Below, in pieces: positions 17,349-64,000 of a DNA stretch of 64,000 nt (positions are counted from its first letter, which is position 1; each line of letters begins with the position of its first letter). Below the pieces are notes generated by a model that was given only the letters and a program-made list of their open reading frames with translations, searched no databases and was not told the origin of the DNA. The DNA is from a virus (Duplodnaviria; Caudoviricetes): positions 10,535 to 74,534 of the IMG/VR virus record IMGVR_UViG_3300006155_000013; one strand, given 5' to 3'. The position numbers and the translations under genes are program-made.

Positions 17349-17372
17349 TAGACGCGCTGGAGACAGCGCGTC
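17349..17372 (-). terminator. Hairpin at end of RHH-like gene
   Basis: AGACGCGCTG-GAGA-CAGCGCGTCT; the AGACGC/GCGTCT stem recurs after the second copy of the gene near 63800. Confidence 0.55.
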
Positions 17373-17554
17373 TACTTTGGATTCATCTCTTTTTCGATCA
17401 GCTCAACGATAAACTGCGTAGTACTTTTTCCACGCAGCTTTGCGTATCGGGTTATCTTTTCCTTTTGCCCCTTCTTGACCTTGATCTCTATCCGGTCGTA
17501 GGTCTTCTTATTGTACCGGGCCGTCGCCTCTTTCTGCGCGTCTGAATATGCCAT
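17372..17554 (-). CDS. Arc/RHH-like DNA-binding protein (antitoxin-like)
   Basis: YDRIEIKVKKGQKEKI...AKLRGKSTTQFIVELIEKEM ribbon-helix-helix pattern. Confidence 0.75.
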   Translation of the reverse strand: MAYSDAQKEATARYNKKTYDRIEIKVKKGQKEKITRYAKLRGKSTTQFIVELIEKEMNPK

Positions 17555-62288: not shown

Positions 62289-62638
62289 TCGAATACTGGT
62301 ACATCATCGTGGCCTTAGCCGCCGTCGTGGCGGCGGCGGGAATGGCCATCCGGCACTATTTCGGCCTGCCCAGCACCGAGCAGATGGATAAGATCCGCGA
62401 GTGGCTGGTGTGGGCAGTCACCAGCGCGGAGAAAGAACTGGGCGGCGGCACCGGAAAGCTGAAGCTCCGGCGGGTCTACGATCTGTTTGTGACCCGCTTC
62501 CCCTGGTTGGCAAAATCGGTCAGCTTCGAGGTGTTCAGCCTCCTGGTGGACGACGCCCTGGAGGATATGCGTAAGATGCTGGAAAACAATATGGCTGTCA
62601 GGGCCATAGTAAATGGGGAGGATACACAAAATGACTGA
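62276..62638 (+). CDS. Holin
   Basis: N-terminal TM; WAVTSAEKELGGGTGKLKL...VDDALE. Confidence 0.75.
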   Translation: MQFVIEYWYIIVALAAVVAAAGMAIRHYFGLPSTEQMDKIREWLVWAVTSAEKELGGGTGKLKLRRVYDLFVTRFPWLAKSVSFEVFSLLVDDALEDMRKMLENNMAVRAIVNGEDTQND

Positions 62639-63434
62639 GGCTCAGGTAAGACAGAAAATCGTCGGCGTCATGCAGGGCTGGGTTGGCCGGAAGGAGGCCA
62701 ACGGCACCCACAAGGAGATCATCGACATCTACAACGCCCACCGGCCCCTTGCCCGGGGCTACAAGGTGAAGTACACCGACGCCTGGTGCGCCACCACCGT
62801 TTCCGCCGCCGCCATTGTTGCGGGGATGACGGACATCATCCCGACGGAGTGCGGGTGCGGCGCCATGATCGAGCTGTTCAAGCGCCTTGGCTGCTGGCAG
62901 GAGAACGACGCCTACCGGCCGCTCCCCGGCGACTTCATCTTCTACGATTGGCAAGACAGCGGCGCAGGAGACAACCTGGGCGCTCCTGAGCACGTAGGCA
63001 TGGTGGAGAAGGTGTCCGGGAACACGATCACCGTCATTGAGGGCAACTACTCCGATTCGGTGAAGCGCCGGACCATCAAGGTGAATGGCCGGTACATCCG
63101 TGGCTACGGCGTGCCGAAGTACGGCAGCAAGGCCGGGCAGGAGAGTGATGCTGTGGCCGCTGTGGACAAGCTCGCAAAGCTGGGTGTCATCAACTCCCCG
63201 GAATACTGGAAGCAGACCGTCAAGAGCGGACGGGTCAAGTACCTGGACGCCCTGCTGGTCAAGGCGGCGGCAAAGATCACCCGGGCCGGTCAGCGCTCTA
63301 GTACGCCGGAGAACGGTATCGGCGCCCTCGTCAGCGCCGGGGTCATCGATACGCCGGACTACTGGCTGGAGCACTACAGGGATGATCCCAACCTGGGGGA
63401 CCTCCTGTGCGCACTGGGCGGGGCGGTCAAATAA
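62631..63434 (+). CDS. Endolysin, CHAP domain with repeated C-terminal binding domains
   Basis: AWCATTVSA; HVGMVE...VIEGN; two GVI(N/D)(S/T)P(E/D)YW repeats. Confidence 0.88.
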   Translation: MTEAQVRQKIVGVMQGWVGRKEANGTHKEIIDIYNAHRPLARGYKVKYTDAWCATTVSAAAIVAGMTDIIPTECGCGAMIELFKRLGCWQENDAYRPLPGDFIFYDWQDSGAGDNLGAPEHVGMVEKVSGNTITVIEGNYSDSVKRRTIKVNGRYIRGYGVPKYGSKAGQESDAVAAVDKLAKLGVINSPEYWKQTVKSGRVKYLDALLVKAAAKITRAGQRSSTPENGIGALVSAGVIDTPDYWLEHYRDDPNLGDLLCALGGAVK

Positions 63435-63468
63435 GCGGACCGCTCCCAATAGAATACTGTCTGATAAG

Positions 63469-63498
63469 GCCCTCTTGCTTCCGCAAGGGGGCTTTTTT
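63469..63498 (+). terminator. Late operon terminator
   Basis: GCCCTCTTGC-TTCC-GCAAGGGGGC-TTTTTT. Confidence 0.85.
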
Positions 63499-63537
63499 CA
63501 TGCTCAATTTTCAAGGTGCCTATATAAAAACGGGGCG

Positions 63538-63682
63538 GCGGTTGACTCCCCCGGTGCCGATGGGGTATACCCATGAGCGCCCGCCCCGCTGCTGGGGCGG
63601 CTGGGCTTGCACCAGCGGCGGCGGTTGCCGTCGTCCTTGCGGGCTGTCATCAGGTGCGCTAAGCAGGGAGCACGTCAACCGC
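63538..63682. ncRNA. Candidate structured ncRNA (145 nt, multibranch)
   Basis: Closing GCGGTTGAC/GTCAACCGC and TCCC/GGGA stems enclosing at least five hairpins. Confidence 0.5.
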
Positions 63683-63816
63683 AAGCACACGGCATGGAGA
63701 GGCCGGGGAGGATACCAAGGATTGAAATTCCCAATCGGTTACGAATTTGAAAAGGGCAGAGGAGTGGCCTGCTGTAGAATGGATGAAAAAAGCAGACGCA
63801 TCATTTTTCAGTGCGT

Positions 63817-64000
63817 CTACTTTTTTGACCGCATCTCTTTTTCGATCAGCTCGACGATGAACTGCGTGGTGCTCTTGCCCTGCCGCGCCGCATATTGGAC
63901 GATCTTCTCCTTCTGCCCCTTCCTGACCTTGATCTCTATCCGGTCGTAGGTCTTCTTATTGTACCGGGCCGTCGCCTCTTTCTGCGCGTCTGAATATGCC
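63817..64000 (-). CDS. Second copy of RHH-like protein (start codon just outside the window)
   Basis: 77 bp identical to 17476-17552; same protein pattern. Confidence 0.8.
   Translation of the reverse strand, partial: AYSDAQKEATARYNKKTYDRIEIKVRKGQKEKIVQYAARQGKSTTQFIVELIEKEMRSKK

Follow-up and report, generated by a model that had tools for sequence, protein, structure and literature searches.

What kind of RNA, and on which strand, is encoded by the 145-nt segment (63538-63682) that lies between a phage endolysin gene and an RHH gene, and what might it do there? The segment belongs to a 64,000-nt stretch of the virus record IMGVR_UViG_3300006155_000013, which was analysed over its whole length and is called the window here. 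The initial annotation had drawn the segment as a multibranch, phage-borne structured RNA, ribozyme-like or regulatory and possibly of an undescribed class, with its strand left unresolved. Its surroundings are as follows.

62613-63434, plus strand: CHAP endolysin gene (CHAP domain match)
63471-63496: endolysin terminator hairpin (terminator scan), convergent, so placed that a transcript of the ribozyme and its companion would enter it
63786-63826: two-way terminator hairpin at the end of the RHH gene, upstream of the ribozyme (seen in the sequence; missed by the scan because of its 11-nt loop)
63817 to beyond 64000, minus strand: RHH gene, partial (homologue matches TacA1/RepB-RCR_reg)

The segment contains a twister-sister ribozyme on the minus strand

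The ORF listing between the CHAP endolysin and RHH genes bore out the description of the segment as a gap without a credible ORF, and upon inspection of the sequence all the stems that had been drawn were present. These are an outer 9-bp stem, in which GCGGTTGAC (63538-46) pairs with GTCAACCGC (63674-82), followed by TCCC 63547-50 / GGGA 63666-69, ATGGG/CCCAT (63560-74), AGCGC 63576-80 / GCGCT 63656-60, CCGCCCC/GGGGCGG (63581-600) and CTGG/CCAG (63601-15). The element had also been said to be lacking from prophage 1 of the window, and indeed only 63809-64000 matches there (17364-17552, 86% identity). We observed that the 145-nt segment folds moderately better than its dinucleotide shuffles, with z = -2.76 for the plus and -1.68 for the minus strand; these values are suggestive and leave the strand undecided.

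The strand was assigned by a scan against all Rfam families (cmscan), which gave one strong match, to the twister-sister ribozyme (RF02681), on the minus strand only. The match covers model positions 1-81 of 81 and reaches 74.8 bits, the gathering score being 34 (E 8.3e-17), and RF02681 is the sole Rfam family above threshold both in the window and in the 74.5-kb virus record. The expectation of a ribozyme-like, phage-borne non-coding RNA was thus right, and that of an undescribed class has to be given up in view of this full-length match to a known family. The score stands at the low end of the range of 74-91 bits obtained with 20 relatives. The helices listed below were assigned from the cmscan alignment to RF02681.

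63564-63647, minus strand: twister-sister self-cleaving ribozyme, four-way-junction form (RF02681 covariance-model match)
63644-41 / 63572-69, minus strand: P1, GCCC/GGGU
63640-36 / 63578-73, minus strand: internal loop L1, GCAAG / GCUCAU
63635-33 / 63581-79, minus strand: P2, GAC/GGC
63634, minus strand: A at the central P2 position, where C is near-invariant; the result is an A.G mismatch (non-canonical pair in the cmscan alignment)
63630-27 / 63622-19, minus strand: P3, CGGC/GCCG
63616-13 / 63603-00, minus strand: P4, GCUG/CAGC, with the loop GUGCAAGCC at 63612-04
63599-94 / 63587-82, minus strand: P5, CGCCCC/GGGGCG
63574-63575, minus strand: predicted scissile bond C63575 / A63574 (C62-A63 of the solved four-way structure)

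In the crystal structure of the four-way-junction form, the cut falls at C62-A63 within G59-C60-U61-C62-A63-U64, and the L1 residues G5 C6 A7 A8 G9 and G59 C60 U61 C62 A63 U64 as well as the SL4 loop are highly conserved (PMC5660989). We located the cut site of the window copy by mapping its GCUC^AU onto G59-U64 of that structure (PMC5660989) via the Rfam alignment. All the conserved L1 residues (GCAAG, GCUCAU) and the SL4 loop are kept in the window copy. As far as family and anatomy can tell from the sequence, the flagged RNA is a twister-sister ribozyme, one more copy of a known family; given the mismatch in P2, self-cleavage of this particular copy is a prediction.

The conserved fold differs from the multibranch one that had been drawn, in which P1, P2 and the catalytic internal loop were assigned to other stems. 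Among the inner hairpins of that drawing, those that correspond to P5, P4 and, in part, P3 survive, whereas AGCGC/GCGCT, ATGGG/CCCAT and TCCC/GGGA together with the 9-bp stem compete with P1 and L1. The UGCAAGC loop and the U run had been correctly seen; the presumed GCAA loop of the GNRA type is the conserved L1 strand GCAAG of the ribozyme.

The window copy is atypical within its family

A stringent pattern search gave 160 twister-sister instances, spread over more than 113 viral contigs, with many instances forming arrays of 2-5. In 75 of the 114 distinct viral 3′ flanks, a Shine-Dalgarno sequence and an ATG are reached within 85 nt, a ribozyme between cistrons being the known layout of twister-sister copies. 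A hairpin–boxA companion, described in the following section, comes after 5 of the 114 distinct viral copies, and the window copy, which has no ribosome-binding site and gene behind it, falls in that class.

P1, P3, P4 and P5 pair in the window copy, and the 3-bp P2 is not fully paired. P2 is GCC/GGC in 140 of about 145 distinct copies, and GAC/GGC was seen only in the window and the near-identical contigs L055 and L101, which together make up one of those distinct copies. This mismatch lowers our confidence in activity and leaves the ancestry unaffected. The ribozyme fold is the predicted minimum for 141 other copies (median penalty 0, mean 0.34 kcal/mol). The active fold of the window copy lies 4.3 kcal/mol above its minimum, the second-highest penalty among the 141 copies compared, and when the flanks are included, alternative folds are better by 8-12 kcal/mol. 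Because of the A.G mismatch in P2 and an active fold that is not the predicted minimum, this atypical ribozyme may be slow or inactive.

In one RNA-library contig, the same A-bearing ribozyme recurs with two neighbouring P5 pairs exchanged, G-C standing in place of C-G. The double swap is compensatory, and speaks for selection on structure inside the window lineage and against pure decay.

A conserved companion lies directly 3′ of the ribozyme

Directly 3′ of the ribozyme we observed a conserved companion, about 60 nt long (63562-63500, minus strand), consisting of a hairpin and then GCACCUUGAAAA. Its parts, with the hairpin that would precede them in the cleaved RNA, are the following.

63560-63574, minus strand: hairpin H0 (AUGGG-UAUAC-CCCAU), predicted in every fold of the 3′ product
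63531-63553, minus strand: hairpin T, closing pair C63553-G63531, GGGG 63552-49 / CCCC 63535-32, invariant interior GAGUCAACCGCCG
63508-63520, minus strand: boxA-like motif GGCACCUUGAAAA, the same 12-mer as in the Oscillospiraceae rrn leader and spacer

The consensus after the cut runs from H0 through CGGCAC, the 21-mer GGGGGAGUCAAYCGCCGCCCC and a U-rich/AYAUA spacer to GCACCUUGAAAAC-N-GAACA. In the window, a U-rich/AUAUA spacer (63521-63530) parts hairpin T from boxA, and the RNA of the boxA region reads GGCACCUUGAAAAUU. H0 borrows the 3′ strand of P1 and would sit at the 5′ terminus of the 3′ cleavage product; its equivalent varies with the ribozyme type (AUGGG/CCCAU, GCGGG/CCCGU, GUGGG/CCCAC), with one violation, in L123.

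The 21-mer core of the companion was invariant across 15 matches in viral contigs and 29 in Oscillospiraceae genomes; two more matches, in actinomycetes, look like chance. Diverged companions were found neither by nhmmer over all the collected loci nor by a relaxed pattern over the viral contigs, both of which gave only exact 21-mers. As the core is invariant, only the closing pair of hairpin T could be tested by covariation, the other pairs being uninformative. This pair does covary (AU 17, CG 14, UG 1, none unpaired), to an extent that 0 of 500 shuffles reached, and slid controls displayed no covariation. As a whole, the companion folds no better than its shuffles (z from +0.4 to +1.5), and on this ground we rejected it as a structured RNA. 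Apart from the lineage-specific 5′ flank, neither its core nor the complement of the core was found elsewhere in the 64-kb window.

Three other readings of the companion were also rejected. Read as a leaderless mRNA, a 66-codon ORF (63574-63374, minus strand) would begin at the AUG made by the cut. This frame is not conserved among the relatives, and a difference of 1 nt in length (CCC versus CCCC variants) shifts the frame through the invariant core, so that the companion is not coding. A promoter, on either strand, was dismissed as there is no conserved -35/-10 pair with workable spacing, nor any promoter-like site in a scan of 63300-64000. An attP site was dismissed from L143, where the module is set about 2 kb into the prophage, distant from its tmRNA-side end. 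As a separate observation, in those twister-sister copies whose P1 3′ strand starts with G, the cleaved RNA begins with 5′-AUG.

The outer stem, drawn initially as closing the RNA fold, has its 3′ arm in this separate conserved element. The other arm is confined to one lineage.

63666-63682, minus strand: 5′ arm of the closing stem (GCGGUUGAC ... UCCC), only in the window, L055 and L101

The 3′ arm, GUCAACCGC, recurs 3′ of diverged twister-sister ribozymes with unrelated 5′ flanks and upstream genes, and the closing stem was not found in any relative outside the window lineage. Shuffling the 5′ flank 3000 times produced a 9-nt complement in 53 cases (chance about 0.018), and the overall energy of the flank duplex is ordinary (883 of 3000 shuffles). 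The 5′ arm can pair with the loop and with the 5′ strand of hairpin T, which makes the two pairings mutually exclusive. We take the closing stem to be lineage-specific, marginally beyond chance and possibly accidental.

The companion carries a host-type boxA

The boxA-like motif of the window, GGCACCUUG, is identical at 8 of 9 positions to the Aquifex rrn boxA, GGCUCCUUG, in which contacts of nucleotides 1-8 with NusB-NusE are structurally defined (PMC3177189). In rrn operons, boxB-boxA has two canonical places, one behind the rrn promoter and one ahead of the 23S gene; for the antitermination complex to assemble, boxA is both required and enough on its own (PMC10250234).

Our reference for the rrn boxA is a set of Oscillospiraceae genomes that includes a carrier of the module, Flintibacter muris, and that may not represent the window's own host. 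In three Oscillospiraceae genomes, a leader boxA (GCACCTTGTAAA) is located about 30 nt past the rrn promoter, and a spacer boxA (GCACCTTGAAAA) in the 16S-23S spacer beyond the tRNAs, each with a hairpin before it; the two motifs occupy both the canonical positions. The F. muris leader consists of the promoter, the hairpin CCGCU-GAUG-AGCGG and then GCACCTTGTAAATTAAACAAC, and its 16S-23S spacer of tRNA-Ile, tRNA-Ala, a hairpin and then GCACCTTGAAAACTGAACAG. Two further Oscillospiraceae genomes also showed such a leader/spacer pair, about 2.05 kb apart. Over four genomes we counted 21 occurrences of the 12-mer, compared with 5 of a reversed control.

Judged by sequence and position, the companion motif is a host-type rrn boxA. 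We read the combination of a hairpin and a host-type boxA on the strand of the ribozyme as the likely anatomy of a nut-like or rrn-like antitermination site.

Ribozyme and companion are linked across relatives

In all 29 matches from Oscillospiraceae genomes and all 15 from viral contigs, a ribozyme lies directly 5′ of the companion. This partner is usually a twister-sister (truncated in L130, of the three-way form in L136), and at six loci (L115, L123, L124, L128, L132, L142) a hammerhead-like ribozyme is found instead. The hammerhead-like units follow the order CUGAUGA-U-stem II-GAAAC-stem III-GUC and were identified from this core motif and from three covarying stems seen by eye; with the L115 hammerhead-like neighbours, Rfam gave no match at E up to 1. 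The presence of two unrelated ribozyme classes in one slot suggests that the cut itself matters, and not the particular ribozyme. Cultured hosts with the module include Flintibacter muris DSM 110149 and Pseudoflavonifractor sp. 60. Beyond the companion the loci vary: many end at a terminator hairpin, and in others genes or long non-coding stretches follow.

An example of a hammerhead-like unit in the place of the twister-sister is L115:7990-8160 (minus strand). At this locus and in L124 and L128, a second hammerhead-like unit comes about 20 nt after boxA, so that the companion is bracketed by two cutters.

The module faces the lysis cassette

In contig L101 and in prophage 1 of the window, the gene order is serine integrase, XRE regulator and RHH, all on the strand of the ribozyme. 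Prophage 2 continues with the RHH terminator, the ribozyme and the companion, and then meets the convergent endolysin terminator head-on. In prophage 1, which lacks the module, about 80 nt separate the lysis genes from RHH. The head-on layout with respect to the lysis cassette was observed in at least eight phage lineages with canonical ribozymes (L034, L078, L117, L118, L119, L148 and others), and this recurrence argues that the arrangement is not an accident of one phage. In L143, the module is in a rightward early operon, two genes past an XRE repressor pair beside a tmRNA gene; this position is nutR-like, and the context supports the antitermination reading.

A promoter scan between the RHH terminator and the ribozyme found no sigma-70-like promoter, and transcription of the ribozyme would therefore need read-through or an unrecognised promoter. 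Downstream of the companion, the window contains nothing coding. Contigs assembled from RNA libraries of three studies contain the stretch from RHH to the ribozyme (63532-63996, 63604-63999 and 63641-63833); being assemblies that possibly include DNA and that break in repeats common to many phages, they allow no strand, ends or cut to be read. The absence of contig cover over 63374-63531 in partial holders carries no weight.

A proposed ribozyme-fronted antitermination site and its alternatives

On balance, we think it probable that the ribozyme and its companion constitute a nut-like or rrn-like antitermination site fronted by a ribozyme that cuts at C63575/A63574. A minus-strand twister-sister would thus stand at the far end of a leftward lysogeny-side unit (serine integrase, XRE, RHH) and face the end of the lysis cassette. 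The transcript would cut itself between C63575 and A63574, leaving an upstream product that ends in the folded ribozyme with a cyclic phosphate and a downstream product that starts with a 5′-OH and H0. Through boxA, NusB-NusE would then be brought to the transcribing polymerase together with NusG and NusA, and the polymerase modified in this way would resist Rho and terminators. By severing the upstream transcript, the ribozyme would provide the site with a context-independent 5′ end. Binding of Nus factors is what the sequence of the companion would predict.

It is puzzling that the site faces a convergent lysis cassette in the window. An antiterminated polymerase would have ahead of it there only the terminator of the convergent gene and the lysis genes in antisense; that the role is to damp leaky expression of the lysis genes in the lysogen is speculation.

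We propose tentatively, and with less assurance than for the site in the window, that Oscillospiraceae prophages have a composite module made of an interchangeable twister-sister or hammerhead-like ribozyme, a hairpin with an invariant loop and the host rrn boxA, in which self-cleavage is functional in processive antitermination. The cut may break the track for Rho or for 5′-end-dependent RNases arriving from upstream, or it may secure context-free folding of the nut RNA.

Several features of the locus would also fit a decaying relic, namely a module that came by mosaic recombination at the lysis/lysogeny junction and is now idle, with the outer stem and the alternative pairings as GC-rich accidents. 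A near-invariant P2 position is mismatched and the penalty on the active fold is the second worst of 141 copies; there is no downstream gene and no recognisable promoter; prophage 1 does without the module; the outer stem is near chance; and L130 pairs a truncated twister-sister with an intact companion. We nevertheless consider a relic unlikely, as the head-on layout recurs in at least eight lineages with canonical ribozymes, the A-bearing lineage has the compensatory double swap in P5, and the companion of the window is letter-perfect.

The ribozyme could instead release a small RNA of about 100 nt, made up of H0, the single-stranded core and the terminator at 63471-63496, that acts in trans or antisense to the 3′ end of the endolysin mRNA; the likeness to boxA would then be incidental or would serve only for protection from Rho. 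An improbable reading, it has to contend with the lack of a complementary target in the 64-kb window besides the lineage-specific 5′ flank, with the other loci in which genes or long non-coding stretches, and not a terminator, come after the companion, and with an exact match to both rrn boxA copies that is hard to credit to chance. What lends it some appeal is that the companion is invariant and less structured than its shuffles (the positive z values given above), as seed regions are, and that in many loci it ends with a terminator hairpin.

In the window, hairpin T runs into UUUUU. It was not called in the terminator scan, and several relatives have a short U tract or none; hairpin and U run together could themselves terminate transcription. 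That this is the intrinsic terminator of the lysogeny-side transcript, with the ribozyme trimming its 3′ UTR, we regard as very improbable. The stem is GC-rich and one RNA-library contig ends at 63532, but this end coincides with the edge of an assembly-breaking repeat common to many phages. Moreover, the U tract is not conserved (GAUCAAC in L078 and L130), terminators do not need an invariant interior of 11-13 nt, and the conserved boxA beyond hairpin T would never be transcribed.

Scarcely credible, finally, is a new structured-RNA class or a plus-strand RNA folded as initially drawn, which has the better z-score of the plus strand (-2.76) on its side and is already refuted by the match of the minus strand to a known family over its full length, by drawn closing stems that are not conserved, and by a ribozyme fold that is the minimum for 141 relatives.

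Comparison with known systems

Compared with the twister-sister ribozymes of RF02681 (PMC5660989), the window copy has the full-length model match, P1-P5, the L1 strands with the C-A step, the SL4 loop GUGCAAGCC and the phage context in common. It differs in the middle pair of P2, which is A.G and not C-G, in an active fold that is not the predicted minimum, and in being followed by the companion instead of a ribosome-binding site and a gene. With intercistronic twister-sister arrays of phage operons it shares the ribozyme family, the host group and, in many relatives, the placement directly after a stop codon; the window, however, has a single copy, with a terminator between it and the upstream gene and no downstream cistron.

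With the lambda nut sites and the rrn boxB-boxA (PMC10250234, PMC3177189), the proposed site has in common a stem-loop beside a host-type boxA on the transcribed strand, and the L143 site, like a lambda nut site, is found near the start of an operon, right after the repressor genes. Among the differences, the hairpin of the window stands on the 5′ side of boxA, an order shared with rrn but not with lambda, and the interior of this hairpin is invariant and dissimilar to the host rrn hairpins. The window site has a self-cleaving ribozyme directly before it and points into a convergent lysis cassette. An N-like protein, which belongs to the lambda system, is not among the parts identified here.

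The RiboJ insulator of synthetic biology, used at 5′ ends, is a hammerhead-type ribozyme with a hairpin. As with RiboJ, the cut in the window module would remove variable upstream RNA and leave a defined 5′ end with a small hairpin before a functional RNA signal. The window module is natural, and the signal that it would guard is an antitermination site, not a ribosome-binding site.

The ribozyme family is already known; its pairing with boxA we did not find described in the literature searched. On its own, the flagged element is an ordinary result, another copy of twister-sister, atypical and possibly weakened. The biological role of twister-sister and of most bacterial self-cleaving ribozymes is still unknown, and a fixed partnership of a ribozyme with a host-type antitermination signal offers a specific, testable hypothesis for the role of the cut. 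If the reading as a composite module is true, it would give such ribozymes a concrete job.

Further conserved elements near the ribozymes and boxA motifs

A second recurrent companion, GUAACAAACACG...CGCGCACCCAUCGCCAACAAUGGCCGCCAGCCCGCCGGGGUGCUGGCAUAAGUCC, comes directly 3′ of 24 of the 114 distinct twister-sister copies (L007, L011, for example L011:3096-3200, L050, L059 and about 20 other loci). Within this second companion lies a 6-bp hairpin, GCCAGC/GCUGGC; its start, ACCCAUCG, is shared by the companion of the window, and Rfam gave no match to the second companion.

In the largest subclass of loci, about 150 nt of conserved, GC-rich non-coding sequence, GGAACAGGAAACGGCCACACCGCCCCCUGCCGCUG...GGCGGAGGGGUAAACACCCGC, come between boxA and the next gene (L033:8225-8400, L143:5355-5500 and about 15 related genome loci). 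This stretch could be a structured RNA, or it could hold terminators that the site reads through. At nine loci (L078, L119, L120, L130, L135, L136, L137, L147, L152) the palindrome AAAUCCCAA-ACGC-UUGGGAAUUU occurs 15-30 nt after boxA; in the window, a half-related sequence, GAUUGGGAAUUUC (63722-63745, minus strand), is instead located upstream of the ribozyme.

Exact boxA 12-mers also head other non-coding stretches in the host genomes, at L165 and L167 (genomes G001 and G004) and at L166. One such stretch, ...GCACCTTGAAAAtttcatatcagcagtacggatcaccacacgg, is conserved between two genomes. These occurrences suggest that the host genomes may encode further boxA-protected untranslated RNAs. In addition, a related viral contig has an RT-18 RNA (Rfam RF03021, 69.6 bits) at L038:5308-5386, minus strand.
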